Origin: Tenuifilaceae bacterium
GTDB lineage: Bacteria; Bacteroidota; Bacteroidia; Bacteroidales; Tenuifilaceae
DNA length: 39,911 nucleotides
Direction: 5' to 3'
Assembly (NCBI GenBank): GCA_035380045.1
Contig: DAOSWM010000025.1
Coordinates: 1 to 39,911, forward strand
Below the pieces are notes generated by a model, which was not told the DNA's origin, ran no database searches, and was given only the letters and a program-made list of their open reading frames with translations. Position numbers and translations under genes: made by a program. Below, one piece after another: positions 3,578-35,141 of this stretch (position 1 is the stretch's first letter; each line of letters opens with the position of its first letter).

Positions 3578-4051
3578 TTGCTACTATTGCAGAATAAAAA
3601 AACAAAACAATTGAGAATACTAATCCTTTGTACCGGAAACTCATGCCGAAGCCAAATGGCCGAAGGTTACCTAAAATCATTTGACAACAGCATTGAAGTT
3701 TTTTCTGCTGGAACCAATCCTTCCAGTAATGTGCATCCGTACGCTGTTGAAGCAATGGCTGAAGTAGGCATCGACATCTCGGGAAATATACCCAAAAGCG
3801 TTGAGCAATACTTATCCCAACATTTTAATTACGTAATAACCGTTTGCGGGGGAGCAAACGAAAGCTGCCCAACCTTTACCGGTAAAGTTGCTAACCGGTG
3901 GCATATTGGCTTCGACGATCCTGCAGAAGCAATCGGTTCCGACGAAGAGGTAATGGCTGTTTTTCGCCGTGTTCGCAACGAGATTGGGGAGTCGTTTTCT
4001 GCATTCTACAAATCGCAAATTCTTGGTGAGAAGAATTGCTGCTGCGAGTAA
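3578..4051 (+). CDS. Arsenate reductase, thioredoxin-coupled ArsC type (LMW protein-tyrosine-phosphatase family)
   Basis: The CX5R P-loop LCTGNSCRSQMAEGY, the paired cysteines VCGGANESCP and the GFDDP motif match the B. subtilis-type ArsC/LMW-PTP fold. The frame has no in-frame ATG. The start is a TTG at 3578, or at 3608 giving MRILILCTGN, so the 5' end is uncertain. The C-terminus ends in an unusual CCCE. Confidence 0.6.
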   Translation: MLLLQNKKTKQLRILILCTGNSCRSQMAEGYLKSFDNSIEVFSAGTNPSSNVHPYAVEAMAEVGIDISGNIPKSVEQYLSQHFNYVITVCGGANESCPTFTGKVANRWHIGFDDPAEAIGSDEEVMAVFRRVRNEIGESFSAFYKSQILGEKNCCCE

Positions 4052-11216: not shown

Positions 11217-11987
11217 ATGCGAGGTAGTCTAGTATTCATAATTACTTTATTTTTCATTTCTTTTTCTTTGTTTTCAAGTGAAACCGAAAAGAAATCGCCC
11301 CTAACCGAGCCATCAGAGAAAATACACATGGCATCGGATTCGCTGAAGTTCGATTTCTCCGCCGATTTCCGCTCGCGCCATATTTGGCGCGGAAATCTTA
11401 CCTGTAGCGCATGGAGCGTTCAGCCTACCATGAACCTTACCTCCTCAAACTTTCTGGTTGGCATCTGGGGTGCTTACACGGTTGACAACAGCTACACGGA
11501 GTTCGACCTTTACGCTTCGTACACCTACAAACGTTTCACCATTGCCATACTCGACTATTTTTGTCCCAGCGAAACGGTTAAATTCAACCACCTATTCAAC
11601 TATAGCAATAAAACAACAAAACACACGCTCGATGCGGTACTCAGCTTCAACGGAACCCAAAGATTCCCGCTGAGCATATCGGCCTCAACGCTGTTCTTTG
11701 GCGACGATAAAAACCCCAGTAATGGTGAAAACTACTTTTCCACCTATATCGAAGCCAGCTATAAATGGGAAGTAAGCGAGCAGCTTAAATCAGAATTTCA
11801 CGTTGGCCTCACTCCCTTCGAAGGTTACTACTCAACAGGGGCAAACGTGGTTAGCTGCGGCTTGTCGATAACTCAAAACTTGCAAATTTCATCAAGTTTC
11901 AAACTTCCGATAAATGGCAAACTCATTATCAATCCTAACACAGAGAATGTGTTCTTTGTGTTAGGGTTTACATTGGGATACTTCTAG
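11217..11987 (+). CDS. Hypothetical secreted protein, probable outer-membrane beta-barrel
   Basis: A signal peptide, alternating hydrophobic beta-strand pattern and a C-terminal aromatic residue (…GFTLGYF) typical of OM barrels. No family was recognised. Confidence 0.4.
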   Translation: MRGSLVFIITLFFISFSLFSSETEKKSPLTEPSEKIHMASDSLKFDFSADFRSRHIWRGNLTCSAWSVQPTMNLTSSNFLVGIWGAYTVDNSYTEFDLYASYTYKRFTIAILDYFCPSETVKFNHLFNYSNKTTKHTLDAVLSFNGTQRFPLSISASTLFFGDDKNPSNGENYFSTYIEASYKWEVSEQLKSEFHVGLTPFEGYYSTGANVVSCGLSITQNLQISSSFKLPINGKLIINPNTENVFFVLGFTLGYF

Positions 11988-12263: not shown

Positions 12264-13103
12264 ATGATAATTACAGATCAAGATCTTCAATATTTTGTAA
12301 GTGCTCTTAAGAACTCCTCTAAGTACGACTTTAGCGAATACTCGGACAAATCGCTCAAGCGTAGGCTTCAGAAGGTGATGGAAGATTTTAATTTAGATAT
12401 CACAGGGCTTATCTCAGCCATACGTAGCGATGCCGATTTTTCAGAAAAAATTGTAAAAGAAATTACCGTAAATACTACTGAACTTTTTCGGGATCCACAG
12501 GTTTGGCACACCCTTCGGTCTCGCATTCTTCCTCGTTTTAAAAACAACAAAACCATTAACATATGGCATGCCGGGTGTTCAACCGGCCAGGAGGTCTATT
12601 CAATGATGATACTCCTAAATGAGATGGGAATGTTTGATAAAGCAAAGATTTTTGCCTCAGATCTAAATACCGATGTCCTCGATGCAGCCAAGAAGGGGCT
12701 GTATAAATACCGTTTCAATATTGGGTATCTTGATAATTTCGACAAGGTTATTAAACAAAACCCATTAAACTACGAAGAGTTTAATGACGTTCCATACGAA
12801 ACTTATTTTGATATTGACAAGGTTAGGGACTCCATTTCCATGAAAAAGTTTTTAACTGAAAAACCCATATTCAGGAAGCATGACTTGGTGAAGGACGGGA
12901 ATCTCTTTTTTGCCAAATTTGACCTTATTCTATGTAGAAACGTAATAATTTATTTTAACTACTCGTTGCAGAACAAAGTATTCGAACTCTTCCATTCAAA
13001 CCTATACAATAAGGGCGTTTTGTTACTAGGTATGCACGAAACAATACTGGGGCCATGGGCCGCTAAGTTCGACAAGATGGGGCAAGCTTACATTAAAAAA
13101 TAA
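12264..13103 (+). CDS. cheR: CheR-type protein-glutamate O-methyltransferase (standalone)
   Basis: It has the CheR N-terminal helical domain and the SAM-binding signature: FFRDPQVW...INIWHAGCSTGQEVYSMMILL...IFASDLN...LILCRNVIIYF. Confidence 0.8.
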   Translation: MIITDQDLQYFVSALKNSSKYDFSEYSDKSLKRRLQKVMEDFNLDITGLISAIRSDADFSEKIVKEITVNTTELFRDPQVWHTLRSRILPRFKNNKTINIWHAGCSTGQEVYSMMILLNEMGMFDKAKIFASDLNTDVLDAAKKGLYKYRFNIGYLDNFDKVIKQNPLNYEEFNDVPYETYFDIDKVRDSISMKKFLTEKPIFRKHDLVKDGNLFFAKFDLILCRNVIIYFNYSLQNKVFELFHSNLYNKGVLLLGMHETILGPWAAKFDKMGQAYIKK

Positions 13104-13129
13104 TTTTGCAGTTATAATCAGTTTTAGGC

Positions 13130-15502
13130 ATGAAGTTTTTAAAAAATATGAGCATCAAACAAAGAATTCAACTTTTGGTTGTCACCCTAATGGTTGTACT
13201 CTTTTCTGCTTCTGCCATTATAGCATACTACATGCTCCGCAAACAATCACAAATATCCACTGATAAGCAAACGATGCTATACCTCGGTCAGCTGGAAAAA
13301 ATTATAACCCTCATTAACGAAAACACTGAACCTGGCTTCGATCACAACGACTACATCCAAATTAAACCATACTTCACCCAAAACCCCTACTTTAAAACCG
13401 ATTACCCTTTTCTAATCGACATTTCTGGCAACTATCTGATTCATCTATACAAAGAAGGTCAGAAATTCCCGCGTGAGCAACTAAAAGAAATGCTCACTAA
13501 CCCTGAAAAAAAAGGTGTAATTATATACGAAGACTATAAGAACGCCCAGCAACAGATCGTTTCACTTTATTTCAAAAAAATTGAACCCTACAACTCTTTC
13601 GTTGCGATTCCCATAAATCATGATGAGGCGTTCTCCCACCTGCAAAACAGCATACTAATTCTTTTAGCCATTGCGATAGCATGCACCCTCATTTCCTTTT
13701 TTATTATCAGGAGAACCTTAAACCCACTGATAAAGGCAATTAACACAGTAAGTAAAAGTCTTAACCTCCTGTCAACAGGACAGGTAGCTCCAAAGATTAA
13801 TTATTTACAAAATGACGAGGTTGGACAAATTGTTCTACCGCTCAATTCTCTTATTGATGGGGTTCAACGAACAACGCTCTTTGCAAAAAGAATAGGTAAA
13901 AGTGAACTCGATGTTGAATTCATCACCATGGGGGAAAATGATGAGCTTGGTAATTCGTTGCTTGAGCTGAAAAACAGCATGCTAAAAACTGCAAAGGAAA
14001 ACGAACAACGAAAACTTCAGGATGAGCAACGGAACTGGAGTACTTCTGGAATTGCAAAGTTTGGTGATATCCTGCGTCAAAACAACAACAACCTTCAGTT
14101 TCTCTCCGACAGTGTTATTCAAAATTTAGTTAACTATCTCAACGCAAACCAGGGAGGCCTATTTATTCTTAACGAATCCGATAACACCCCATACCTTGAA
14201 CTCATTTCGGCTTTCGCATTCAACCGTAAAAAGGTTAAAACAAAAACTATCCATGTAGGAGAGGGACTCGTAGGGAATTGTGCAATAGAAAAACAAACTA
14301 TTTACCTAAAAGAAATTCCCGAAGATTACATTGAGATTACGTCTGGGCTTGGTGATGCTCCTCCAAGTTCGCTTCTCATTGTACCCCTCAAGCTTGAAGA
14401 TAAAATTTTTGGAGTAGTTGAACTTGCTTCATTTAATGAGTTTCAACCTCATGAAATTGAATTCGTTGAAATAATAGGAGAAAGCATCGCCTCTACCCTC
14501 TCCGCTGTGAAAAATAACATCCGAACCAATGAGCTCCTAGAACAATCGCAGCAACAACGTGAAGAAATGGCTGCTCAGGAGGAGGAAATGCGGCAGAACA
14601 TGGAGGAAATGCAAGCCACGCAGGAAGAGATGGCACGCAAAACCCTCGAGATGGAAGGTATGACATCTGCCATTAATGAATCGTTAGCTTTTGCGGAGCT
14701 AACCGAGGAGGGAAACTTCATAATGGCGAATCCAAACTTTTTAAGCCTAACAGGTTACGGAAAAACAGAAATTGAGAATAAACGTATCAACGACTTCATT
14801 CACTCCGACGAGGCTGCGATCTTCAACAAAAACTGGAAGAACATTGTGATAGGCGAACCCTTTAAGGGAACGCTCAAGTGGGTGAACCATAGCGAAGAGG
14901 AATTGTATGTGCTTGCAAGCATAAGTCCTGCCTTCGATGAAAGCGGACGTATTTTTAAAATATTCTTCCTGGGTCAGGATGTTAGCGAATCAAAAAAAAT
15001 TGAGTTGAAAGCCCAAGCGCAAGCCGAAGAGATTGAAAAGAGTTTAATGGAACTCGAGATGGAACAGGAACTATCCAAGCAACGCGAAGAGGAAATGGAT
15101 GCTTTGCTTCAAGCCCTCGACACCACCTGCCTTGTAACACAATTTGAACCCGATGGTCGCATTACATACATCAACAATAAAAACGTTGAAACACTTGGCG
15201 ATCCAAAAAGCAAAATTGAAGGGAAACTCCATTCCGAACTTGATTTTCAAGCTAAAAATAATCCCCAAGAGTACAAACAGTTCTGGGAAGACTTGCTTCT
15301 GGGCATTCAAAAAACCAGAGAATTTTCACTCAACGTTAGCGGAAAAAATATCTGGATTTCAGAACACTACACCCCTATTAAAAATACAGAAGGGAAAGTT
15401 ATTAAAATTATTAACATCGGAATCGACATATCTGCCTCGAAAGACACGGAAAAAAAATTGAGGGAAACTGTTAACTCCTTAAAAAAGGACAAGGAAAAGT
15501 AA
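13130..15502 (+). CDS. Membrane sensor protein: TM-periplasmic region-TM-HAMP-GAF-coiled coil-PAS-coiled coil-PAS, with no recognisable output domain
   Basis: A TM helix, a ~150-aa extracytoplasmic region and a second TM helix (ILILLAIAIACTLISFFII) are followed by a HAMP-like segment. The GAF motif is ITSGLGDAPPSSLLIVPLKLEDKIFGVVELASF. The EE-heptad helix EEMAAQEEEMRQNMEEMQATQEEM resembles MCP methylation helices. Two PAS-like blocks follow. No kinase, cyclase or phosphatase domain is present. Confidence 0.7.
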   Translation: MKFLKNMSIKQRIQLLVVTLMVVLFSASAIIAYYMLRKQSQISTDKQTMLYLGQLEKIITLINENTEPGFDHNDYIQIKPYFTQNPYFKTDYPFLIDISGNYLIHLYKEGQKFPREQLKEMLTNPEKKGVIIYEDYKNAQQQIVSLYFKKIEPYNSFVAIPINHDEAFSHLQNSILILLAIAIACTLISFFIIRRTLNPLIKAINTVSKSLNLLSTGQVAPKINYLQNDEVGQIVLPLNSLIDGVQRTTLFAKRIGKSELDVEFITMGENDELGNSLLELKNSMLKTAKENEQRKLQDEQRNWSTSGIAKFGDILRQNNNNLQFLSDSVIQNLVNYLNANQGGLFILNESDNTPYLELISAFAFNRKKVKTKTIHVGEGLVGNCAIEKQTIYLKEIPEDYIEITSGLGDAPPSSLLIVPLKLEDKIFGVVELASFNEFQPHEIEFVEIIGESIASTLSAVKNNIRTNELLEQSQQQREEMAAQEEEMRQNMEEMQATQEEMARKTLEMEGMTSAINESLAFAELTEEGNFIMANPNFLSLTGYGKTEIENKRINDFIHSDEAAIFNKNWKNIVIGEPFKGTLKWVNHSEEELYVLASISPAFDESGRIFKIFFLGQDVSESKKIELKAQAQAEEIEKSLMELEMEQELSKQREEEMDALLQALDTTCLVTQFEPDGRITYINNKNVETLGDPKSKIEGKLHSELDFQAKNNPQEYKQFWEDLLLGIQKTREFSLNVSGKNIWISEHYTPIKNTEGKVIKIINIGIDISASKDTEKKLRETVNSLKKDKEK

Positions 15503-15529
15503 GGTTAAGTTGCTGACTAAAACGAAACG

Positions 15530-16360
15530 ATGGTACGATACGAAATAGGCATAGTAGAAACACGAAACGTAATCAAAACTTTACTTGAAACCTTTGATTA
15601 CGACTTTAGCGATTATGCGCTTACCTCATTTAAGCGAAGACTTGAAGATATTATTATTAACAACGGACTGAAGGATGCCGATGGATTAATTTACAGGCTA
15701 AAAAACAACAAGGACTACTTCGAATATTTCCTCCGTGAAATAACTCCTGAAACAACTGAAATGTTTCGCGATCCTTCACTATGGCGAACACTCCGCGATG
15801 ATATTATTCCTGATATCACCAGAACATCAGGAAAATTAAAATTCTGGGTTGGCAATTTCGATTCGGGGGAAGATTTATATTCGCTCTGTATCACCCTCAA
15901 CGAATTGGGCATCCTAAACGAATCAACTATATACTGTTCAATCATCAGCAATGTAATTGAACATAAAATAAAAAGCGGTAAAATCGACTTTAAGCAGGTT
16001 GAAACCAATGAAGCGAACTATACACGCTGTAACGGCGACAAAAACTACTCCGATTACGTTACCGTTAACAATGGAATGGCTACAATTGATACCAAACTGA
16101 TTGAAAACGTTACCTTCCTGAAGCAAAACACCCTATTCAACAACTGTCCTAACAGCGTTAAACTTCTACTTTTCAGGAACCAGATTATTTACTACAACCA
16201 ATCGTTACAGGATAAAATAATAAATAACATCTCAAATAGTTTGGTCGCAGGAGGGTACCTGGCCATTGGCGCAAAAGAAACCTTGGATAATACAAATACA
16301 AGCAATAAATTTACCGTGATTAACGATGCCGAAAAAGTTTACAAAAAGAAAACAGGTTAG
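15530..16360 (+). CDS. Divergent CheR-like methyltransferase paralog (SAM-binding glycine/cysteine motif degenerated)
   Basis: The CheR N-terminal motif MFRDPSLWRTLRDDIIPDI is present. The canonical G-C-S-T-G-E-E-x-Y-S is replaced by GNFDSGEDLYS. The C-terminal LLLFRNQIIYYN corresponds to the CheR LIFCRNVLIYF. It is therefore CheR-fold but possibly catalytically altered. Confidence 0.65.
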   Translation: MVRYEIGIVETRNVIKTLLETFDYDFSDYALTSFKRRLEDIIINNGLKDADGLIYRLKNNKDYFEYFLREITPETTEMFRDPSLWRTLRDDIIPDITRTSGKLKFWVGNFDSGEDLYSLCITLNELGILNESTIYCSIISNVIEHKIKSGKIDFKQVETNEANYTRCNGDKNYSDYVTVNNGMATIDTKLIENVTFLKQNTLFNNCPNSVKLLLFRNQIIYYNQSLQDKIINNISNSLVAGGYLAIGAKETLDNTNTSNKFTVINDAEKVYKKKTG

Positions 16361-16366
16361 TAAATT

Positions 16367-16927
16367 ATGTATAAAGCAGTTATAATAGGAGGTTCTGCAG
16401 GAAGTTTTCAGGTGATAACTAAAATTCTAAGTTCATTACCACAAAACTTTCATTTACCTGTGCTTCTTAGCCTTCACAGGCTAAAACATGTTCGAAGCGG
16501 ATTCGTTGAAGCCCTTTCCATCAAGGCCTCAATACCTGTTATCGAACCATATGATAAGGATCAGATTAAACCCGGCAAAGCATACCTAGCCCCAGCCAAC
16601 TACCATATGTTTGTTGAATTGGGAAATAAAATTGCTCTTTCAACGGAAGAACCCGTAAATCACTCGCGTCCATCCATCGACCTTTCTTTCACTACTGCAG
16701 CCCAAGTGTACCGCGATAAACTAATCGGCATAATACTCTCTGGCGCCAACAAGGATGGTGCTTACGGCTTAAAAAAAATTAAGGATTATGGTGGGATTGC
16801 CATTGTTCAAGATCCTGAGGAATGCCAAGTTAAAACAATGACCGAGTCATCGCTTCGACTCACAAAAGTCGACCATATTTATAGAACAAATGAGATTATT
16901 AGATTTTTACAAAATCTTAAACCCTAA
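16367..16927 (+). CDS. cheB: CheB-type protein-glutamate methylesterase, catalytic domain only (no receiver domain)
   Basis: The catalytic triad context is conserved: GGSAGS (Ser), NHSRPSID (His) and SGANKDGA (Asp). At 186 aa it lacks the N-terminal REC domain. Confidence 0.8.
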   Translation: MYKAVIIGGSAGSFQVITKILSSLPQNFHLPVLLSLHRLKHVRSGFVEALSIKASIPVIEPYDKDQIKPGKAYLAPANYHMFVELGNKIALSTEEPVNHSRPSIDLSFTTAAQVYRDKLIGIILSGANKDGAYGLKKIKDYGGIAIVQDPEECQVKTMTESSLRLTKVDHIYRTNEIIRFLQNLKP

Positions 16928-16939
16928 CCCCGATGCCCA

Positions 16940-17749
16940 ATGAAAAAACTCTCATTCAAATCGAGATTTAGCCACGGCATCCTGCTGTTAATACTTCTTT
17001 CCGGAGCCATAACTTCGGCATTAATAATGCATAACATCATCCTACAGCTAGGCGGCAGAATATCTCTTATCCCCATCATTCTTATACTTTTTGCAATTGG
17101 GGCTGGAGTTATGCTATACCAGAAAGCAGCATCAAATTACCGGCAGTTTTACAAAAAAACAGAAGAGCTAGAACATCTCAAAAAAGCCGTTGAACAAGCA
17201 CGTAAAGCAGAGGAAGAGAAAGAAGTAGCAAAAAAAAGTAAGGAAAACCAAGAGCAAACAGTTGTCGACTTCGACGCTGAAGTACAATCGGTTATCCCCC
17301 TTGAAACCTTTGAAAACAACGAACAGTACATAGAGAAACTGCTAGCCAACGTCGCTAATAAGTTTGAAATCGTTCAGGGAATTGTTTTTCTCTACAACCC
17401 ACAGAAGAAGAAATTCTGCTTCTCTGGAGGTTACGCATACTTCTCAGAAGAGATTCCAAGAGAGTTTTCTGAAGGTGAAACACTTTCAGGACAGGTTGCA
17501 AAAAACAAGATTCTACTTAACCTCGACAATGTTCCCGAAGGTTACATTACAATCCTTTCGGGTCTTGGGAAAGGAACCCCAAAAAACCTAATTATCGCAC
17601 CTGTCCTCACTGCTCAAAGCGAATGTATTGGCGTAATTGAGCTGGCTTCATTTAAGCCCTTTACAAAGGATTGTGAAAAAGTATTCGAACTACTGGGCAA
17701 GTCCGTGGGCGTACAAATTGAAAATAAAACCCTAAGCAATGAGGAGTAG
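16940..17749 (+). CDS. Small membrane protein with two TM helices, a coiled coil and a C-terminal GAF domain
   Basis: The TM helices are ILLLILLSGAITSALIM and LIPIILILFAIGAGVMLY. The coiled coil is EELEHLKKAVEQARKAEEEKE. The GAF motif ITILSGLGKGTPKNLIIAPVLTAQSECIGVIELASF is paralogous to the GAF domains of the two flanking large sensors. Confidence 0.6.
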   Translation: MKKLSFKSRFSHGILLLILLSGAITSALIMHNIILQLGGRISLIPIILILFAIGAGVMLYQKAASNYRQFYKKTEELEHLKKAVEQARKAEEEKEVAKKSKENQEQTVVDFDAEVQSVIPLETFENNEQYIEKLLANVANKFEIVQGIVFLYNPQKKKFCFSGGYAYFSEEIPREFSEGETLSGQVAKNKILLNLDNVPEGYITILSGLGKGTPKNLIIAPVLTAQSECIGVIELASFKPFTKDCEKVFELLGKSVGVQIENKTLSNEE

Positions 17750-17752
17750 TTT

Positions 17753-20365
17753 ATGGTAACTCATAGCAAAATATCTTCAACCACCCAAGCTAGGCTCATC
17801 TCCCATAAAGTGGTGATGGCAGGTGTAATAGGATTACTTTTTATGGTTCTTGCCTGGATTTTAGAACTCATCGGACAAAATATTCCCTTCTCAATAAGCA
17901 GTATTGGAGCAATACATTCTACAAACCCCACTTTATGGATAATTGACATACTCCCATTACTTTTTGCATATGTCACCTGGGTTCAGCTCTCAAAGCATCA
18001 GGAAAAAGTTGTTTTCCTTGAGGAAGAAATCCAGCAACGTGACGACGACATAAATAAAAACGCTCTTTTTGCAAAAAAGATTGGAGAGGGCGACTACAAT
18101 GCCAACCTTGAGATTAGCGATGAAGAGGATATTCTCGGGAAATCGCTCCTGGTTATGCGCGACAACCTCCTAGAGAATAACCAGAAGGAATCGGAGCAGA
18201 ATTGGATTTCAACAGGCAAGGATGAAGTTTCGCACATACTCCGATTGCATAACAACATCGATGAGCTAACCTACGAGGTTCTGGTTAAACTCATTAACTA
18301 CATAAACGTTATTCAAGGTGCCCTCTACATATACGATGAGGATAAAAAAATACTGAAAAACCTAGCCACATTCGCATACTCACGAAAAAAATTCATCAAT
18401 CAGGAGTTTAAAATCGGACAAGGTTTAATTGGTCAATGTGCCTACGAACGTGATTTTATCTACAGAACCGAAATCCCCGATAACTACATTTCAATAACAT
18501 CAGGAATACTCGGTGACAAGAAACCCAAGAGCCTCCTTATAGTACCACTTATAACCGACGAAAAACTCCAGGGCGTAATCGAGTTTGCTTCGCTTGACGA
18601 TAACATCCCCGAGCTAACAATCCGTTTCCTAAAAGAAATGGGCGAAATTATTGCCCGTACCATCTTTAACCTAAGGGTGAACCAAAAAACGGAAAGATTA
18701 CTGCAGGAAGCTCAACAGATGACTCAAGAACTTAAAGAGAACGAAGAGGAGCTTCGGCAGAATGCTGAGGAGATGAGAGCCACACACGAAGAGCTCGAGA
18801 AATCGAACGCCAAACTTGAGCAAAAAATTAAGGAGGTAGAAAACGCTCAAAAACGATTACACTCACTCCTTGAAAACGCATCAGAAATAATATCGATTTA
18901 CAGCAGCAGCCTTAAACTCACCTACATAAGCCCTTCGGTAACAAAAATTTTAGGCTACACACCCCAGGAAATGATGAGCGGAAAGGATATCGATAGGCTT
19001 ACCCGCAAGGGCGAGCAAGATTTGAGCGACATGTTCCACAAGCTACTCGACTCTCCCCGTATGCCCATCACCATCCAGTACACTTTCATGAAAAAGGATG
19101 GAGAAAAGATATTCCTTGAGGTTACCGGACGTAACTTACTCGACGACACTGCAATTAATGGCATCATTCTTAACTCCCAAGATATTACTGAGCGCAAAAG
19201 AGCCGAGAAGGAGGAACGCATGCGGAGCAAAATGCAGGCCCTATCAGAGAACTCACCCGACATGATTATTCGCCTCAACACCGCAGGACAATTCTTCTAC
19301 GCCAACCCCATGGTGGAGCAGTACCTTGGCATTCCGGTGAAAGACTTAATAAACCAAACCCTTAACTCCATTGAAATAAACGAAACGCTTCTCTCCTTCT
19401 TCAAAGAATCAATTAAAACCATAAAAACCACCAAACAGAAAGTTGAAGAAGACCTTACTTTCGATGCAAAAATTGGTGAAACCATAATGCATATCTCAGC
19501 AATTCCGGAATTTAACGAGAATGAACTCGAAACAATCCTTTTCGTTAGCCACGATATTACCGAAGCGAAACGCATTGAACTCGAAATCCAGGATAAAAAC
19601 CGAAAGATTACCGAAAGTATCAACTACGCACAGCGTATTCAAACCTCAATACTTCCAAACAACAAAATTATTCGACAGTATCTGCCAAAATCATTCATTT
19701 ACTATAAACCACGCGACGTGGTTAGCGGCGACTTCCCCTGGTTTTTTATAAAAGAAGATTACATCTACATTGCTGCTGTCGACTGTACTGGGCATGGAGT
19801 TCCTGGAGCTCTGCTCTCATTCATTGGTTACTTTACACTCAACAATGTTGTTGACCATGATGTTACCTATAGCGCAGGAAAAATTCTTGACGTACTTCAT
19901 TTTGGAGTACGCAAAACCCTTAAACAGGACAGACCCGATGCTGATGCTCGTGATGGGATGGACATTGCACTTTGTAAAATAAATCTTAAAAAGAAAGAAC
20001 TCCAATACTCAGGTGCTCACAGGCCCCTGTTCCTTTTACGAAACAAAGAGCTACTTGAATACAAAGGCGACCGAAAAGCCATTGGGGGCATCCCTCATCC
20101 AAAGAAAGAGGAGTCTGACTTTACAAACTACATCATCGAGCTAAAACAGGGAGATAAGATATTCTTCTTCTCCGATGGCATGCCCGACCAAGTTGGTGGT
20201 TCAGACATCAGAAAGTACGGACCAGCAAGAATCCGGGAGATTATCACAGGCAATCCAGACATGACAATGCCCCAGTACAACGAAATTTTCTCAAAAGATT
20301 TTGAAGAGTATAAGGGTGAAAATAAGCAAATTGACGACGTTTTACTAATTGGTATAGAATTCTAA
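17753..20365 (+). CDS. Membrane sensor phosphatase: TM-HAMP-GAF-EE-heptad coiled coil-PAS-PAS-PP2C/SpoIIE Ser/Thr phosphatase (SiaA/RsbU-like)
   Basis: Two TM helices are followed by a HAMP-like linker. The GAF motif is ITSGILGDKKPKSLLIVPLITDEKLQGVIEFASL. The EE-heptad helix is QELKENEEELRQNAEEMRATHEELEKS. Two PAS blocks follow. The PP2C motifs are RIQTSILP...VSGDFPWF...AAVDCTGHGVPGALLS...DGMDIAL...FFSDGMPDQ. The start overlaps the stop of the upstream gene (ATGGTAAC). Confidence 0.8.
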   Translation: MVTHSKISSTTQARLISHKVVMAGVIGLLFMVLAWILELIGQNIPFSISSIGAIHSTNPTLWIIDILPLLFAYVTWVQLSKHQEKVVFLEEEIQQRDDDINKNALFAKKIGEGDYNANLEISDEEDILGKSLLVMRDNLLENNQKESEQNWISTGKDEVSHILRLHNNIDELTYEVLVKLINYINVIQGALYIYDEDKKILKNLATFAYSRKKFINQEFKIGQGLIGQCAYERDFIYRTEIPDNYISITSGILGDKKPKSLLIVPLITDEKLQGVIEFASLDDNIPELTIRFLKEMGEIIARTIFNLRVNQKTERLLQEAQQMTQELKENEEELRQNAEEMRATHEELEKSNAKLEQKIKEVENAQKRLHSLLENASEIISIYSSSLKLTYISPSVTKILGYTPQEMMSGKDIDRLTRKGEQDLSDMFHKLLDSPRMPITIQYTFMKKDGEKIFLEVTGRNLLDDTAINGIILNSQDITERKRAEKEERMRSKMQALSENSPDMIIRLNTAGQFFYANPMVEQYLGIPVKDLINQTLNSIEINETLLSFFKESIKTIKTTKQKVEEDLTFDAKIGETIMHISAIPEFNENELETILFVSHDITEAKRIELEIQDKNRKITESINYAQRIQTSILPNNKIIRQYLPKSFIYYKPRDVVSGDFPWFFIKEDYIYIAAVDCTGHGVPGALLSFIGYFTLNNVVDHDVTYSAGKILDVLHFGVRKTLKQDRPDADARDGMDIALCKINLKKKELQYSGAHRPLFLLRNKELLEYKGDRKAIGGIPHPKKEESDFTNYIIELKQGDKIFFFSDGMPDQVGGSDIRKYGPARIREIITGNPDMTMPQYNEIFSKDFEEYKGENKQIDDVLLIGIEF

Positions 20366-20403
20366 ATTGATTATTATCGGTAAATTATTTAATTTTACGG
20401 GCT

Positions 20404-20979
20404 ATGGACAAAAAGAATGTTAAAGGGTTTCTTGAGTTTGTATACGACTTCTACAAGTCGATGAAAGCTCATGAAATCACCCTTGTGTACGAGGGTGAAA
20501 TAACCCACCAAATCACCAAGGCCTTTACCTCCCTCACTGAGTCGAACATGGCGAAGGAGGAAGAGTCTAACTCTGTGCAGAAGAAAGTCTTTCATGTTAT
20601 GGTAGAGTGCCTGCAAAACATTAGCAAGCACGCCGACAGCTTCGGCTCCGATGACTTTCTGTTCGCCGGACGAGGAATCTTCATGGTTAGTAAAGGTGAA
20701 ATTGAGTACCATGTTACTACCGGGAACGTGATTGAGAACTCAAAGATTGATGAACTCACAAAAATTCTCGACCACATCAACACCCTGGATAAGGACGGTT
20801 TGAAAGAACTGTACAAAACACAGATGCGAGAAGGACGTCTTTCGGAGAAAGGTGGAGCAGGACTTGGATTTATTGATATTGCTAGGAAAACTGGCCGTAA
20901 ACTCGAGTACCACTTCCTCCCCATCGACGAAGAAACCCACTTCTTTATTTTAACCTCAACCATATCCAGAAACGAGTAA
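20404..20979 (+). CDS. GHKL-type Ser/Thr protein kinase, SiaB/RsbW/SpoIIAB-like partner-switch kinase
   Basis: The N-box-like VECLQNISKHA and the G2-box EKGGAGLGFIDIARKTG of HATPase_c anti-sigma-factor-type kinases are present. The 191-aa size and position directly after a PP2C phosphatase gene fit this role. Confidence 0.6.
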   Translation: MDKKNVKGFLEFVYDFYKSMKAHEITLVYEGEITHQITKAFTSLTESNMAKEEESNSVQKKVFHVMVECLQNISKHADSFGSDDFLFAGRGIFMVSKGEIEYHVTTGNVIENSKIDELTKILDHINTLDKDGLKELYKTQMREGRLSEKGGAGLGFIDIARKTGRKLEYHFLPIDEETHFFILTSTISRNE

Positions 20980-20994
20980 GAAAATACAAGAGCT

Positions 20995-21378
20995 ATGGAA
21001 ACCATAAAGATCATGGGTACCGACGATACCCCAACTGTTATTCTCGATGCTGATAACGATATCTTTGAGATATCAGGCCGCTCTCTCCCCGAGGATGTAA
21101 CCGCATTCTACGAGCCCATACTTAACTGGCTCGACGATTATGCCAACTCGCCTAATGCGAAAACCGTGTTTATATTTAAACTCGTTTACTTTAACACAGC
21201 GAGCTCCAAGCTTCTACTTGACATTCTTATGAAGCTTGAGCAAATGCATGAAGATGGCAAGGAGGTATTAATCCGATGGTTCTACCCTGAAGATGATGAA
21301 GATATGCAGGAAGCTGGTGAGGAGTATGCTGATATTGTTGATATCCCATTTGAGCAGGTAAGCTACACGCTAACCTAA
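20995..21378 (+). CDS. DUF1987/SiaC-like small regulatory phosphoprotein, the probable kinase/phosphatase substrate
   Basis: It is 127 aa. The pattern DDTPTVILDADNDIFEISGRSLPEDVTAFYEPILNWLDDY ... VYFNTASSKLL ... WFYPEDDEDMQEAGEEY matches the SiaC-family layout as remembered, including the Ser/Thr-containing YFNT(A/S)SS segment. The family assignment is from recall, not a search. Confidence 0.55.
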   Translation: METIKIMGTDDTPTVILDADNDIFEISGRSLPEDVTAFYEPILNWLDDYANSPNAKTVFIFKLVYFNTASSKLLLDILMKLEQMHEDGKEVLIRWFYPEDDEDMQEAGEEYADIVDIPFEQVSYTLT

Positions 21379-21419
21379 TTTAGCCTATAGCTATCCGTTT
21401 GCTTTAACAAACCTTAGCA

Positions 21420-24400
21420 ATGAGTGAAGAAATTCTCAAGGCTTTAATGCAACTGTTTGCGATTATCGCCAAACAGGACGAGGGCGTTGAATCTAATGAA
21501 CGCGACTACGTCGTGAATTTTCTTACTCAACAACTTAACGATGAGGCCGTTAAGGAGTATATCAATCTTTTTGATCAGCATGCAGGCCTTAACGATGAAA
21601 AGGAGGAGGATAATGGCGAGGAGGGGAAACCCAAAAAAGTAAAACTCACCTCGGTTAAGGACTCTGTAAAGATCCTGGGGATTTGCAAAAAAATTAACAA
21701 AACACTTACCCAGGAGCAAAAAGTAGTTGTTCTGGTTCGCCTTTTTGAGCTGGTTAATGCCGACCGAAAATTTACCGACCAACGGATGGCCATTATAAAC
21801 ACTGTGGCCGAAGTATTTAAACTCACAAAGGAAGAGTTTCAGGATGTTGAAAATTTTGTTATCAACAACGACCCAAAAGATCTCGATTATCCCAGCATTC
21901 TCAGTATACACGACAAGGAAGAACTAGGCGAACACTGCAAGCACATTCCCACAGAGGCACTCAACGGATACCTATTCATTCTCCAAATTAAAAGTGTCGA
22001 CCTATATTTCCTGCGATACACAGGAAATGAGGACATTTTCCTAAACGGGCTACCAATTAACAACAAACGCATCTACCTTTTCGCAAGTGGTAGTTCAATT
22101 AAACTTCCTAAGGGAAAACCTGTTTACTATACCGATGTTGTTGCTCACTTCCTCGCCGATTTGAGTGCAACCCGGATTTGTTACGATGTTCAGGATGTTG
22201 GTTTCAGGTTCAAATCAGGCGATATTGGGCTCCGCAACATCAGCTTCAAGGAAGAACATGGCAAACTCATAGGCATTATGGGTGCCAGCGGTGCCGGAAA
22301 AACAACACTTTTAAACGTTCTAGCTGGGGTTGAAAAACCAACGAGCGGCCGAGTTCTTATCAATGGATTCGATTTACACAATGAGAAAGAAAAAGTTGAG
22401 GGTGTTATCGGTTTAATACCCCAGGACGATCTGCTCATTGAAGAGCTAACCGTTTTTCAGAACCTGTACTACAACGCAAAGCTATGCTTTAAAAACAAGA
22501 CCGAAGAAGAACTTGTTGAACTTGTCGACAGAACGCTCGACAACCTAGGCCTTCTTGAAAGGAAGAACCTAAAGGTTGGTTCGCCCATGAATAAAATGAT
22601 TTCGGGTGGCCAGCGGAAAAGGTTGAACATAGCCCTCGAGCTTATCCGCGAACCCTCCATCCTATTTGTCGACGAACCAACTTCTGGCCTATCATCACGC
22701 GACTCTGAAAACGTTATGGACCTTCTAAGGGAACTAACCCTTAAAGGCAAGCTAATTTTTGTGGTTATCCACCAGCCATCGTCGGACATATATAAAATGT
22801 TCGATAACATGACCATTCTTGATACTGGCGGATACCTTATATATTATGGGAATCCCGTTGAAGCCGTTATGTATTTCAAACGCCTCGACATGCAAATTAA
22901 CAGTGATGTTGGCGAATGTCCCACGTGCGGTAACGTTAACCCAGAGCTCATCTTCAACATTATTGAAGCCAAAGTGGTTGATGAATTTGGTCGCTACACA
23001 CCAACCCGAAAAGTATCACCACCAAAGTGGGAGGATTACTACCACGAAAACATCAAACTGAGGGAAGTTAATGACGAAACCGAGCCTCCCCCAAAATCCC
23101 TAGATATCCCCTCAGCGTTCAAACAGTTCTTAATATACACAACCCGCGACTTCCTGTCAAAGGTTAGCAATACGCAGTATATAGTACTAAACCTACTCGA
23201 AACCCCTATTCTGGGATTTATTCTTGCATTCGTAATACGATACATAGCCGACCCAAACTCAAATATTTATATTTTCCGCGAAAACGAAAACATACCCATC
23301 TATATTTTTATGGCGCTAATTGTGGCCCTGTTTATTGGCTTAACAGTAAGTGCCGAGGAAATTTTTCGCGACAGAAAAATACTGAAGCGAGAAGCATTCC
23401 TAAACCTTAGCCGAACCTCGTACCTTTTTAGTAAAATATCTATCCTTGTAGTTCTGTCTGCTATACAAAGCATTACGTTTGTGCTAATTGCAAATGGGAT
23501 TCTCCAACTCAAAGGAATGAACTTCGAGTACTGGCTCGTACTATTCTCCACAGCAGTTTTTGCTAACCTTTTAGGGCTGAATATTTCAGCAACTTTCAAT
23601 TCGGCCGTAACCATATATATTGTTATCCCGCTTTTAATGATTCCTATGATGGTTCTTTCCGGAGCCATGTTTAGCTTCGAGAAGCTTAATCGAGCCGTAG
23701 GAAGTTTTAGCCGTGTCCCAATTATCGCTGAATTTATGGTCACCAAATGGGGCTACGAGGCTCTGGTGGTACACCAGTATAAGGATAACGATTTCCAGAA
23801 GAATTTCTACGAGATAGAGAAGGTTGAACGCAACGCAAACTACAAAACCGTATACTACATTCCTGAAATTGAAAAAAAGGTTCTTGAAACCTTAGATCTA
23901 CTTGAAAGTTCAAACGAGGAAAACCAACAAACACTATCCGCAGACTTAAACACGATACACAAGGCAATATTCAACGAAACGAACTATTTAGCACCAGGTG
24001 TGCCATTTAGCTTCATTGATAGCATAACCATAAACAGCTACTCATTCGAAACTGCATACGCTATTATTGATTACCTAGATGCCCTGAAAAATCATTACAG
24101 TAAAATTTTTCAGGGGGCAAACCAGAAACGCGACCGAATTATCAACCACCTTGTCAGCACCAATCCTAAACTCTATGAAGCAAAAAGGAGAGCCTACCAT
24201 AACGAAAGCATCGCCGACCTAGCAGAAAAAGTATTTGAAAAAAATAAAATTCTTTTATACAAAGATGAATTCGTACAACAATACGACCCCATATACAGGG
24301 ATCCCTTACCAAGGCATGCGCTCGATTTTCGCTCACACTTCTTAGCCCCCCGAAAATTCTTTTTTGGCAACTTCTTTGATACGTTTTGGTTCAATATTTG

Positions 24401-24509
24401 TTTTATATGGTTTATGTCTATAGTTCTTTACATAACACTTTACTTTGAAACATTAAAAAAACTGTTAGATCTTTCCTCTAAAATAAAAATACCATGGGGG
24501 AAAAAATAA
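21420..24509 (+). CDS. Fused ABC transporter (ABCG/White-like): N-terminal regulatory region (TerB-like helical domain plus FHA-like segment), ABC ATPase, ABC-2 type permease and a ~250-aa C-terminal extension
   Basis: Walker A is GASGAGKTTLLNVLAG, the ABC signature is ISGGQRKRLNIALEL and Walker B is ILFVDEPTSGL. Six TM helices follow the ATPase (aa ~560-790). The N-terminal ~240 aa, MSEEILKALMQLFAIIAKQDEGVESNERDYV...NADRKFTDQRMAIINTVAEVF, is TerB-like. The segment YLFILQIKSVDLYFLRYTGNEDIFLNGLPINNKRIYLFASGSSIKL is FHA-like. Both N-terminal calls are tentative. Confidence 0.8.
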   Translation: MSEEILKALMQLFAIIAKQDEGVESNERDYVVNFLTQQLNDEAVKEYINLFDQHAGLNDEKEEDNGEEGKPKKVKLTSVKDSVKILGICKKINKTLTQEQKVVVLVRLFELVNADRKFTDQRMAIINTVAEVFKLTKEEFQDVENFVINNDPKDLDYPSILSIHDKEELGEHCKHIPTEALNGYLFILQIKSVDLYFLRYTGNEDIFLNGLPINNKRIYLFASGSSIKLPKGKPVYYTDVVAHFLADLSATRICYDVQDVGFRFKSGDIGLRNISFKEEHGKLIGIMGASGAGKTTLLNVLAGVEKPTSGRVLINGFDLHNEKEKVEGVIGLIPQDDLLIEELTVFQNLYYNAKLCFKNKTEEELVELVDRTLDNLGLLERKNLKVGSPMNKMISGGQRKRLNIALELIREPSILFVDEPTSGLSSRDSENVMDLLRELTLKGKLIFVVIHQPSSDIYKMFDNMTILDTGGYLIYYGNPVEAVMYFKRLDMQINSDVGECPTCGNVNPELIFNIIEAKVVDEFGRYTPTRKVSPPKWEDYYHENIKLREVNDETEPPPKSLDIPSAFKQFLIYTTRDFLSKVSNTQYIVLNLLETPILGFILAFVIRYIADPNSNIYIFRENENIPIYIFMALIVALFIGLTVSAEEIFRDRKILKREAFLNLSRTSYLFSKISILVVLSAIQSITFVLIANGILQLKGMNFEYWLVLFSTAVFANLLGLNISATFNSAVTIYIVIPLLMIPMMVLSGAMFSFEKLNRAVGSFSRVPIIAEFMVTKWGYEALVVHQYKDNDFQKNFYEIEKVERNANYKTVYYIPEIEKKVLETLDLLESSNEENQQTLSADLNTIHKAIFNETNYLAPGVPFSFIDSITINSYSFETAYAIIDYLDALKNHYSKIFQGANQKRDRIINHLVSTNPKLYEAKRRAYHNESIADLAEKVFEKNKILLYKDEFVQQYDPIYRDPLPRHALDFRSHFLAPRKFFFGNFFDTFWFNICFIWFMSIVLYITLYFETLKKLLDLSSKIKIPWGKK

Positions 24510-24562
24510 TTTTTTATATATTTACTTGTTTAGAATTATAGTTAAATACAAAACTCAATGTT

Positions 24563-25474
24563 ATGGCAAGGATCATACCTCTTCTTCTAATAATATCTGT
24601 TCTACTTTCATCGTGCAGATCCTGCAACCAAGATCAGGATGCGAATAAGGAGTTTGACATCCCTGATGAATTAATGAACGACGAGCAGCCCCTCCCTGTA
24701 TCCTCTGAAGTTATTGATGAGATTGTACAAAACGTATCTTCTCCCGTTGAAACTGCTGCCCTTATTAAAGGCTTAAAGGTTCCCTTTAACAAGGATTACA
24801 TGGCCTCAACCAATAGCGCTAAAAACATGAATACCAGCTTTCAAAAAGCGTTAGGGCTAGGCATTTACGGAGCCGACCTTGGCTACCTAAACATGTATGA
24901 AAAAACAACCGTTGTGATCGATTATATCTCAACAGTAAAGGATTTGGCTGATGGCATTCAAGTCGGTCAATTTTTCGACTTTAACACCCTTCGACGGATT
25001 GCCACTAACAAAGAGAACCTAGATTCTTTAATGCTCATTTCCCAGCAAAGTTTCAATCGAATTGACAGCTATCTACGTGAAACTAACCGAGCAAGCCTAA
25101 GTGTGGTAATTATTGCTGGTGTTTGGCTTGAGGGTCTATATCTTTCTACCAGGGTTGCACAGGATGCGAACCACCCACGAATAAACGAAACCATTGGCGA
25201 ACAAAAGGTTATTATGGGAACCCTTATGGCTCTTCTTGATAACTATAAACGTGACCCCAATATTGCAACCTTAATTTCTGATTTTGAGGAGATAAAAGAT
25301 TTGTATAAGGATGTTACAATAACCTACGAGATAGGAGGCGAACCAACACCCGTTGTCAAGGACGGTGTTCTCACATTTGTTCAGAATGATGTGCAAACAA
25401 TAAAAATGTCTGACGAAACATTAAAGGCCATAATAACAAAGGTGCAAACATTAAGAAACAAATTTATTAGTTAA
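24563..25474 (+). CDS. Hypothetical lipoprotein
   Basis: Signal peptide with a lipobox-like LLSSC. There is no recognisable family. It is co-directional with and 54 bp after the ABC transporter. Confidence 0.45.
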   Translation: MARIIPLLLIISVLLSSCRSCNQDQDANKEFDIPDELMNDEQPLPVSSEVIDEIVQNVSSPVETAALIKGLKVPFNKDYMASTNSAKNMNTSFQKALGLGIYGADLGYLNMYEKTTVVIDYISTVKDLADGIQVGQFFDFNTLRRIATNKENLDSLMLISQQSFNRIDSYLRETNRASLSVVIIAGVWLEGLYLSTRVAQDANHPRINETIGEQKVIMGTLMALLDNYKRDPNIATLISDFEEIKDLYKDVTITYEIGGEPTPVVKDGVLTFVQNDVQTIKMSDETLKAIITKVQTLRNKFIS

Positions 25475-25493
25475 TCAGAGAAATTTAAGGGCC

Positions 25494-25931
25494 ATGAAAA
25501 AAACATATTTTATTTTACTACTAACGTTCATTCTCTCCGGAGCCTATTCGATTGCTTTCGCTCAATCTGAAGACGATTTAGTTGAGATTTGTGGAATGAT
25601 AGCACAGGATGCAACCTACCTTAAAGACTTTAAGGTAAGGCTCGATGCGGGGAATCCTCCTCCAGTTCAGCGTTTTTCAGTAATTCTTAAGAAAGGAATT
25701 AAGTACAGGTTCTCGGTTTGCAATTCCAAGGACTATGAAGGGAAAGTTGTTCTTCAGCTACTTGATAACAACCGCCTCCTAGCCACCACTCACGTAGTGG
25801 CAAGCGGACAGGACTACCCATCAATAGACTATGTGTGCACAAAGACAGGAGCATACCACCTCTTCTTCAACTTTAAGGACGGAAAACCTGGGTTGGCTGT
25901 TGGCTTACTTTCGCTGGTTGAAACAATATAG
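25494..25931 (+). CDS. Hypothetical small secreted protein
   Basis: Signal peptide MKKTYFILLLTFILSGAYSIAFAQ. It is 145 aa with no recognisable family. Confidence 0.4.
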   Translation: MKKTYFILLLTFILSGAYSIAFAQSEDDLVEICGMIAQDATYLKDFKVRLDAGNPPPVQRFSVILKKGIKYRFSVCNSKDYEGKVVLQLLDNNRLLATTHVVASGQDYPSIDYVCTKTGAYHLFFNFKDGKPGLAVGLLSLVETI

Positions 25932-26002
25932 CTAAATACAATTAATAAATATTCAGGGTATTCATTTTTGAGTACCCTTTTTTATTCTGGAATTGTAAAA
26001 AA

Positions 26003-35052: not shown

Positions 35053-35141
35053 AGCGTAGAATGGTTTGAAACTTAGCCCCAAAGATGTAATAAAATAGCG
35101 AGAATGTAAACAGTTTTCTGTTCCTAATTCAATTTGAATAT

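Follow-up and report, generated by a model that had tools for sequence, protein, structure and literature searches.

Why should an operon that encodes no chemoreceptor carry two paralogues of the methyltransferase CheR together with a methylesterase, CheB, and what does the second CheR do with a cofactor-binding motif that departs from the family pattern? These questions arise from a 39,911-nucleotide stretch of DNA from a Tenuifilaceae bacterium (Bacteroidales; GenBank assembly GCA_035380045.1, contig DAOSWM010000025.1), referred to here, over its whole length, as the window. An original prediction made from the sequence alone had placed two different CheR paralogues and a CheB in one operon, and an open reading frame (ORF) check and Pfam searches bear this out. 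CheR1 (12264-13103, + strand, 279 amino acids) has the canonical features of a CheR methyltransferase and would be the writer of methyl groups; CheR2, also written CheR* (15530-16360, + strand, 276 amino acids), is a CheR paralogue with a degenerate cofactor pocket; and CheB (16367-16927, + strand, 186 amino acids) consists of the methylesterase/deamidase catalytic domain alone and is the predicted eraser. All three belong to an operon of 11 tightly packed + strand genes with short gaps (12264-25931), in the order CheR1, a 790-residue sensor, CheR2, CheB, a small transmembrane GAF protein, a SiaA-like PP2C phosphatase, SiaB, SiaC, a TerB-ABC transporter and two exported proteins. CheR1, CheR2 and CheB sit in a SiaABC-type partner-switch operon without CheA, CheW or a methyl-accepting chemotaxis protein (MCP), not in a chemotaxis operon.

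CheR2 combines a CheR fold with a degenerate cofactor pocket

Both paralogues are recognizable members of the CheR family. CheR1 matches Pfam CheR (6e-38) and CheR_N, with Bacillus subtilis CheR (5FTW, 4e-29) as its best match among solved structures, and CheR2 matches Pfam CheR at 1.8e-19 (70.4 bits, cutoff 27) and CheR_N at 22 bits, just under the cutoff. An AlphaFold2 model of CheR2 (predicted local distance difference test score of 93.7) found CheR 5FTW as its best Foldseek match (TM-scores of 0.80/0.86), followed by 1BC5 and 1AF7. Pfam, the model and Foldseek agree on the two-domain CheR architecture, with an N-terminal helical domain, a Rossmann-type methyltransferase domain and the β-subdomain.

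We aligned 72 CheR1 and 76 CheR2 orthologues with the CheR proteins of Salmonella typhimurium and B. subtilis and counted residues per column. Residue numbering follows S. typhimurium CheR, whose sequence as used here is identical to that of 1AF7 over residues 11-284. CheR1 is canonical at all motifs tested (WHAGCSTGQEVYS at amino acids 101-113 for motif I, ASDLN and FDLILCRNVIIYFN); R98 and Y235, together with AGCSTG, D154, D225 and CRNV, are invariant in its 72 orthologues. The motif attributed to CheR2 by the original prediction, WVGNFDSGEDLYS (amino acids 106-118; 15845-15883, + strand), is present at the position aligned to motif I of CheR1 and to WSAAASTGEEPYS of S. typhimurium, and its description as a degenerate S-adenosylmethionine (SAM) motif holds in part. 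Positions 122-125, an invariant A-G-C-S in CheR1, have changed to A/P, a variable residue, F/V and D/S, and of the cofactor loop A-(A/G)-(A/C)-S-T-G-E/Q-E CheR2 keeps only S/T126, G127, E128 and E129 (S126 in 74/76, G127 in 76/76 and E129 in 72/76 orthologues), with Tyr131 and Ser132 also kept. The further statement that a catalytic Cys/Ser-Thr-Gly core had been lost was mistaken: this motif is the cofactor-binding loop, and the key catalytic residues of CheR are Arg98 and Tyr235 (PMC3447774), each of which is kept in 75 of the 76 CheR2 orthologues. CheR2 also retains Trp120, Gly256, Gly261 and Arg53 of the N-terminal domain.

Stronger degeneracy lies outside the quoted motif, at Asp154, Asp225, Cys229 and Val232. 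In class I methyltransferases, from whose general rules we take the SAM-contact roles in CheR, SAM is contacted at its carboxypropyl moiety by a Gly-rich loop and at its ribose hydroxyls, through hydrogen bonds, by the motif II acid, and motif IV begins with a near-invariant acid (PMC1282579); in the literature searched we found no residue-level description of SAM contacts for CheR. The motif II acid, Asp154 at the end of strand β2, is D in 72/72 CheR1 sequences and in three solved CheRs, and is acidic in 0/76 CheR2 orthologues, in which the position is variable (S28, V22, T7, Y7, A5, C3 and others). In strand β2 of the CheR2 of the window (IYCSIIS, 15929-15949, + strand), Ile138 stands in place of the presumed ribose-binding Asp154, and in the AlphaFold2 model this residue ends strand 132-138, the place of the canonical acid. 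Motif IV, canonically D-x-I-x-C-R-N-V, reads VKLLLFRNQIIYYN in the window (16157-16198, + strand), with D225->K, C229->F and V232->Q substitutions and with R230, N231 and Y235 kept. Across the CheR2 orthologues R230 and N231 are invariant (76/76 each). Asp225, D in 72/72 CheR1 sequences, is K in 65 and R in 9 (74/76), a reversal of charge; Cys229, C in 72/72, is F in 68/76; and Val232, V in 72/72, is Q in 71 and K in 5 (76/76). Asn92, N in 72/72 CheR1 sequences, is E in 63 and D in 7 (70/76), and the CheR2 positions aligned to the adenine-side residues 212/213 are variable. Alignment to S. typhimurium CheR leaves the SAM site without two acids and most of its loop, and CheR2 very probably no longer binds SAM in the canonical way.

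Degenerate CheR proteins form an old, selected clade

Independent assemblies provide 76 distinct CheR2 orthologues, all of about 270-280 amino acids, that share these substitutions, and one database protein (P0001), from a Tenuifilaceae metagenome-assembled genome, matches CheR2 at 100% identity and is found on 11 contigs. Identical and orthologous sequences in so many independent assemblies rule out a frameshift or assembly artefact, and the motif difference reported by the original prediction is real. In comparison with the related locus L006, CheR2 shows a ratio of nonsynonymous to synonymous substitution rates (dN/dS) of ~0.06 (dN 0.052, against an 89%-identical orthologue) and CheR1 one of 0.009 (dN 0.016), values that are rough with dS near saturation (0.5-2). 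CheR2 is under strong purifying selection and is clearly maintained. This ratio, the constant length and the confidently predicted fold rule out a pseudogene, and we give practically no credence to the idea that the degenerate motif reflects a sequencing error or a decaying gene. Over 54 genomes, mean identity to the window is 79% for CheR1, 82% for CheB, 90% for SiaB and 55% for CheR2, which evolves about twice as fast as CheR1 in the same genomes.

A protein library search with CheR2 returned 242 cluster representatives (50% identity) at E <= 1e-30. Among the best 150, which were analysed, 85 have no acid at position 154 and 64 are canonical; the 85 tend to [FY]-R-N-[KQR], and canonical CheRs have C-R-N-V. 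Neighbour-joining groups the degenerate sequences in a single clade (87 leaves, of which 91% are without the acid) and places CheR1 among canonical sequences, which answers in the affirmative whether the degenerate paralogue is a conserved clade. Two of three distant degenerate representatives (~34% identity) have a canonical CheR upstream and CheB plus a GAF protein downstream, and one of these two loci also encodes a phosphatase with the helix described below; the contig of the third is too short. Because distant members are again flanked by a canonical CheR and by CheB and a GAF protein, canonical CheR, degenerate CheR and CheB form an old and obligatory combination. Public sources name CheR2 orthologues 'chemotaxis protein methyltransferase CheR' or 'protein-glutamate O-methyltransferase CheR' (P0001-P0120, P0270-P0329), although these proteins have no Asp at the SAM-ribose position and are encoded in operons devoid of chemotaxis genes, and the latter label is probably over-specific.

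CheB consists of the esterase domain alone

The CheB of the operon had been described as lacking the receiver (REC) domain, and we agree: its Pfam match is CheB_methylest alone (2e-48, 164.8 bits), and because this domain fills residues 5-179 of 186 the protein is without a receiver. No N-terminal REC domain was found in CheB, whose orthologues measure 184-189 amino acids. In the PDB it matches 3SFT (1.6e-27) and 1CHD. The Ser164-His190-Asp286 triad shows no variation among the orthologues aligned at the respective residue (73 at Ser and His, 78 at Asp); the triad positions were taken from an E. coli CheB sequence, and the PDB alignments agree with them. CheB looks active. Removal of the REC domain activates E. 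coli CheB, and by analogy the absence of this inhibitory domain suggests that the CheB here may be constitutively active.

The Che genes are embedded in a Sia-type operon

Next to the Che genes the operon encodes the components of a partner switch. The SiaA-like sensor phosphatase (17753-20365, + strand, 870 amino acids) comprises transmembrane (TM), HAMP-like, GAF, coiled-coil, two PAS and PP2C regions. It has Pfam GAF, PAS and SpoIIE matches and matches NCBIfam SiaA (5.5e-50) over the PP2C region only, at 170.6 bits against an equivalog cutoff of 700 (NF038263), below the level at which it would be called SiaA itself. The SiaB-family protein kinase (20404-20979, + strand; NCBIfam SiaB_fam_kinase, 178 bits versus a cutoff of 85; Pfam DUF6272) and the SiaC-family regulatory phosphoprotein (20995-21378, + strand; Pfam SiaC, 143 bits versus a cutoff of 24.5) are members of their families, with the narrower equivalog models under their cutoffs. 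The membrane sensor between CheR1 and CheR2 (13130-15502, + strand, 790 amino acids) has TM, HAMP-like, GAF, coiled-coil and two PAS regions, supported by Pfam GAF and PAS matches; it has no output domain and is a paralogue of the sensor part of the phosphatase.

A Pfam scan of the window ORFs of at least 150 amino acids that are not antisense-overlapping, and of the smaller operon genes, found no MCP, CheA or CheW and no SiaD-type GGDEF domain. A phmmer search with Tar signalling-domain and CheW sequences likewise found no MCP signalling domain or CheW in 2,418 ORFs of the window and 85 related loci. With no MCP or CheW gene in the scanned ORFs, we rejected a classical chemotaxis operon for this neighbourhood. 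The TerB-ABC transporter, a probable lipoprotein and a secreted protein stand where Pseudomonas aeruginosa has SiaD, and may be the output of the pathway.

Of the 85 loci compared, inspected over only ~20 kb per genome, 80 come from different species-level genomes of Bacteroidales/Marinilabiliales. The order CheR1-(790-residue sensor)-CheR2-CheB-GAF-SiaA-like-SiaB-SiaC-ABC-p303 is kept in 85/85 loci, to the limit of each contig, and appears again in loci L086, L088 and L092; Perlabentimonas gracilis (L007) is the only cultured organism among the operon-bearing loci. Along the stretch CheR2-CheB-GAF-phosphatase the median intergenic gaps are 5-8 nt, and that between CheR2 and cheB is near-constant at 5 nt. 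The 790-residue sensor is optional: present in closer loci, it is absent from ~30 more distant ones (roughly one third; L050-L085), in which CheR1 and CheR2 are directly adjacent, and in L092 a shorter GAF protein (636 amino acids) with the same helix occupies its place. A reduced locus, L087 (GCA_054923775.1, 9063-12464), contains CheR1-CheR2-CheB-GAF only, followed by unrelated genes, with a lone SiaC-family gene ~3 kb away on the opposite strand and no adjacent phosphatase.

The small membrane GAF protein (16940-17749, + strand, 269 amino acids; Pfam GAF_2, 1.6e-5) always lies directly after CheB, even in L087. It is the fastest-evolving member of the operon, with 39% mean identity versus 72-90% for its neighbours, and its GAF domain shares an SGLG...P..L.I.P signature with both large sensors.

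A candidate methyl-accepting helix in the operon's sensors

The pattern EExx[AST][AST] occurs exactly twice in the whole operon, as EEMQAT in the 790-residue sensor and as EEMRAT in the phosphatase, both at the homologous place, a coiled coil between GAF and PAS. The candidate helix of the sensor (14543-14644, + strand) holds that protein's only match. In the phosphatase the candidate helix (EAQQMTQELKENEEELRQNAEEMRATHEELEKSN; 18707-18808, + strand) reads ENEEELRQNAEEMRATHEELEKSN, with three EE[LM] units every 7 residues and Glu pairs at E332/E333, E339/E340 and E346/E347, the central one of which fits exactly the classical CheR site consensus, Glu-Glu-X-X-Ala-Thr (PMC1079850). The helix is nearly invariant in 75 phosphatase orthologues, at a conservation of 0.90 versus 0.77 for the whole protein. 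MCP methylation sites are likewise spaced by 7 residues. Pure E/Q columns number 3/870 in the phosphatase and two of them (331 and 333) lie within the helix; at 333, the column of E333 with which the first pair ends, 58 orthologues have E and 17 have Q. MCP sites that are deamidated by CheB vary between E and Q in the same manner. The helix of the 790-residue sensor is nearly invariant in 42 orthologues and is matched at 2e-5 by a hidden Markov model (HMM) of the phosphatase-orthologue helix, and the helix is kept in the distant system L092.

Two other readings were considered. That the helix is a generic feature of PP2C sensors was rejected, as the other PP2C protein of the window (162-3542, 1126 amino acids) has no match to the helix HMM. 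Methylation sites in the small TM-GAF protein were rejected as well, this protein having no EE-x-x-A-T and no helix HMM match.

A similar repeat, NEELQS-NEELETS-KEEL, is carried by CheB/CheR fusion sensor kinases. A protein database search with this coiled-coil motif returned 17 short fragments, of which 3 are named CheB/CheR fusion by the Joint Genome Institute; one has a PAS_10 domain. These fragments suffice to establish that proteins of this kind contain the motif. The window helix HMM ranks all 17 above 2,110 decoy ORFs, a likeness that is weak (8-18 bits) and between low-complexity sequences. These matches, coherent if circumstantial, suggest that a heptad EE helix may go with CheR and CheB in sensors other than MCPs, where the enzymes act in cis (the fusions) or in trans (this operon).

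A proposed adaptation module and its rivals

The core of our proposal, which we hold to be evenly balanced, is a CheR2 without catalytic activity in a module whose targets are the sensor helices of the operon itself; which proteins are the substrates and what CheR2 does are both read from sequence. In the proposed model the SiaA-like membrane sensor phosphatase and the SiaB kinase would set the phosphorylation state of SiaC, and SiaC would control the output, probably the adjacent TerB-ABC transporter, because this always comes after SiaC and no SiaD cyclase is present. The three Glu-Glu pairs of the phosphatase and the equivalent sites of its 790-residue paralogue would be the methyl-accepting sites. 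CheR1 would write methyl esters on the EE sites of the signalling helix, the receiver-less CheB would remove them and deamidate encoded Gln without CheA-dependent control, and the methylation state would bias signalling from GAF to PAS/PP2C, providing adaptation without CheA. CheR2 would no longer bind SAM or transfer methyl groups and would dock on the same Glu sites through a surface formed by the retained Arg98, Tyr235, Arg230 and Asn231, where it would shield or read them, or else serve CheR1 and/or CheB as a partner for regulation or targeting; the near-constant 5-nt gap to cheB hints that it may be co-produced with CheB. In its fullest form the proposal is tentative: reversible glutamate methylation, hitherto linked to MCP-CheA chemosensory arrays, may constitute an adaptation layer on a Ser/Thr partner switch of non-flagellated Bacteroidales, with the PP2C helix as acceptor and with CheR* reading or shielding the Glu sites and so giving the feedback that CheA-dependent phosphorylation of CheB gives in chemotaxis.

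Several points weigh against this model, beyond the rough dN/dS values and the weak likeness to the fusions given above. The function of Asp154 as a ribose ligand in CheR is a presumed one, assigned from the general class I rule and from the 1AF7 structure, and the loss of SAM binding and of methyl transfer by CheR2 are predictions at the level of sequence. Any MCP or CheA genes elsewhere in these genomes would lie outside the ~20 kb scanned in each. The EE-x-x-A-T motif is short, with about one chance match expected in the operon's 4,400 residues, and the case for the helix rests on its conservation, its heptad spacing and its E/Q variation. CheR2 also keeps both catalytic residues and, within motif I, Gly127 and Glu129, which leaves room for SAM binding of an unusual kind. 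Sequence-based calls on CheR-like domains are risky, because a CheR-like domain of Treponema denticola that was predicted to be inactive binds SAM (PMC7666581). This precedent lends weight to the main rival, which we judge unlikely: CheR2 may still be an active methyltransferase with non-canonical SAM binding, a second writer with another preference for site or substrate, such as the 790-residue sensor or other heptads. R98, Y235, R230/N231, G127 and E129 are all conserved under strong purifying selection, and the new residues E92, F229, Q232 and K225 are themselves conserved, as expected of a pocket that was remodelled rather than decaying. Yet position 154 is never acidic, and not conserved either, in the 76 orthologues and 85 cluster representatives, the motif IV acid is charge-reversed to Lys/Arg, and the residues aligned to 212/213 on the adenine side are variable. 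CheR2 moreover persists in loci without the 790-residue sensor and is therefore not a dedicated writer for that protein.

The conserved pocket substitutions (E92, F229, Q232, K225 and L130) could also mark a site for a different small molecule, which would make CheR2 a ligand sensor that gates the access of CheR1 or CheB to their sites. Small-molecule control of a CheR through a partner is known, and the CheR1-MapZ-cyclic di-GMP structures 5XLY and 5Y4R are among the fold matches; however, variable residues at position 154 and in motif I fit the loss of a site better than a change of ligand, and we consider such a sensor improbable. It is very improbable that CheR1, CheR2 and CheB are ordinary adaptation enzymes for MCPs encoded elsewhere and that their adjacency to SiaABC is incidental. 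The limited stretch inspected per genome leaves room for such receptors, and in database annotation each of these proteins appears as a CheR or CheB of chemotaxis, but the operon order is invariant over 80 species-level genomes, with gaps of 5-8 nt from CheR2 to the phosphatase, phmmer finds no MCP or CheW in any of the 85 loci, and a conserved helix resembling a CheR site lies inside the operon's own proteins. Bacteroidales are generally not known to have flagellar chemotaxis systems. A literature search on Perlabentimonas and Tenuifilaceae yielded no information on motility or chemotaxis genes.

Neighbouring genes

Downstream of SiaC lie the ABC transporter with an N-terminal TerB-like domain (21420-24509, + strand, 1029 amino acids; Pfam ABC_tran and ABC2_membrane) and two exported proteins of no known family (24563-25931, + strand), a probable lipoprotein of 303 amino acids and a protein of 145 amino acids with a signal peptide, with which the operon ends. 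All three follow SiaC in essentially every related locus. A terminator-like hairpin, a pattern match only, lies after the last gene (25955-25978, + strand; 10-bp stem followed by a T run). A scan for sigma-70 promoters was uninformative (30 sites versus 34 expected); Bacteroidota use a promoter type other than the sigma-70 consensus scanned for. Upstream of CheR1, a 256-residue signal-peptide protein without a Pfam family (11217-11987, + strand) is found at the same place in ~20 related loci and may be loosely tied to the operon.

Elsewhere in the window, the 1126-residue protein is a second large sensor phosphatase (+ strand) with Reg_prop β-propeller repeats, Y_Y_Y and SpoIIE/PP2C, and a low-molecular-weight phosphotyrosine phosphatase follows it (3578-4051, + strand). 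A radical SAM/SPASM protein (339 amino acids) overlaps the end of a 435-residue ORF without a confident family (33883-36161, - strand), and the two could form a peptide-maturase-type pair.

Implications

None of the single parts is new: CheR, CheB, SiaABC and a CheB without REC are known, as is the notion of a pseudo-CheR. In the literature searched we found no description of CheR/CheB with SiaA/SiaB, with PP2C partner switching or in Bacteroidetes, nor of a pseudo-CheR beyond the T. denticola precedent. Within that literature, three elements appear to be undescribed: the coupling of a methylation module without CheA to a PP2C partner switch, an ancient clade given over to CheR paralogues that lack Asp154, and a candidate methyl-accepting signalling helix of this kind. 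The operon suggests methylation-based adaptation outside chemotaxis. If the model holds, CheR/CheB methylation would extend beyond chemoreceptor arrays as an attachable layer of adaptation or memory on a phosphatase/kinase partner switch; a whole clade annotated as CheR methyltransferase (85 of the best 150 representatives) would consist of non-catalytic partners, correcting a systematic misannotation; and CheR1 and CheR2 would be a bacterial example of an enzyme-pseudoenzyme pair. The model is readily testable, with small soluble proteins, three defined Glu pairs and one cultured carrier, P. gracilis.

Relation to known systems

The classical CheR and CheB of MCP-CheA-CheW pathways (E. coli and Salmonella; 1AF7, 1BC5, 5FTW, 1CHD) resemble the canonical CheR1 and the CheB of the operon, which shares their catalytic domain and triad. 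The present system differs in several respects. None of the scanned window ORFs encodes an MCP signalling domain, CheA or CheW, and neither an MCP signalling domain nor CheW turned up in the 85 related loci; the candidate acceptor is a helix that links GAF to PAS within a PP2C phosphatase, CheB is without a receiver, and a second CheR without SAM-binding residues is obligatory. CheB/CheR fusion sensor kinases, compared here from short fragments, are alike in joining CheR and CheB to a non-MCP sensor with an EE[LM] coiled coil every 7 residues (NEELQSSNEELETSKEELQSLNEEL); the fusions hold the enzymes in cis on a histidine kinase, whereas here they are separate proteins that would act in trans on a PP2C. 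We know of no degenerate CheR copy in these fusions, nor of a characterization of the fusions themselves.

The SiaABCD system of P. aeruginosa, whose pathway logic is summarized in PMC9239204, has in the same order a membrane-sensor PP2C, a SiaB kinase and a SiaC phosphoprotein. It differs in that no SiaD diguanylate cyclase was found here, the TerB-ABC transporter following SiaC instead, and in that the phosphatase here has GAF and two PAS domains and falls under the SiaA equivalog cutoff (170 versus 700); the Pseudomonas Sia system does not include CheR, CheR* or CheB genes. A precedent for a REC-less CheB exists in the F3 chemosensory class of Campylobacterota, likewise a stand-alone methylesterase domain without a phosphorylatable receiver (PMC9239204), but that protein works within a CheA-CheV-CheW-MCP pathway, unlike the one described here.

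CheR2 is most nearly paralleled by the CheW-CheR-like protein of T. denticola F2 systems, a CheR-fold protein that stands beside a canonical CheR and is thought to be non-methylating and to have taken on structural or regulatory functions. Its CheR-like domain, for which inactivity had been predicted from the sequence, carries R79W and Y218F, has lost the receptor-binding residues and binds SAM with a Kd of 8.8 uM (PMC7666581). CheR2, by contrast, is a stand-alone protein of 276 amino acids with no CheW fusion and no CheA partner, and its residues show the reverse pattern: the T. denticola domain lost the catalytic Arg and Tyr and kept SAM binding, whereas CheR2 kept Arg98 and Tyr235 and lost the SAM-binding acids. 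If the proposed model is correct, this degeneration, in which the cofactor site would be lost and the catalytic and substrate site kept, would be the opposite of that in the only non-catalytic CheR studied so far.

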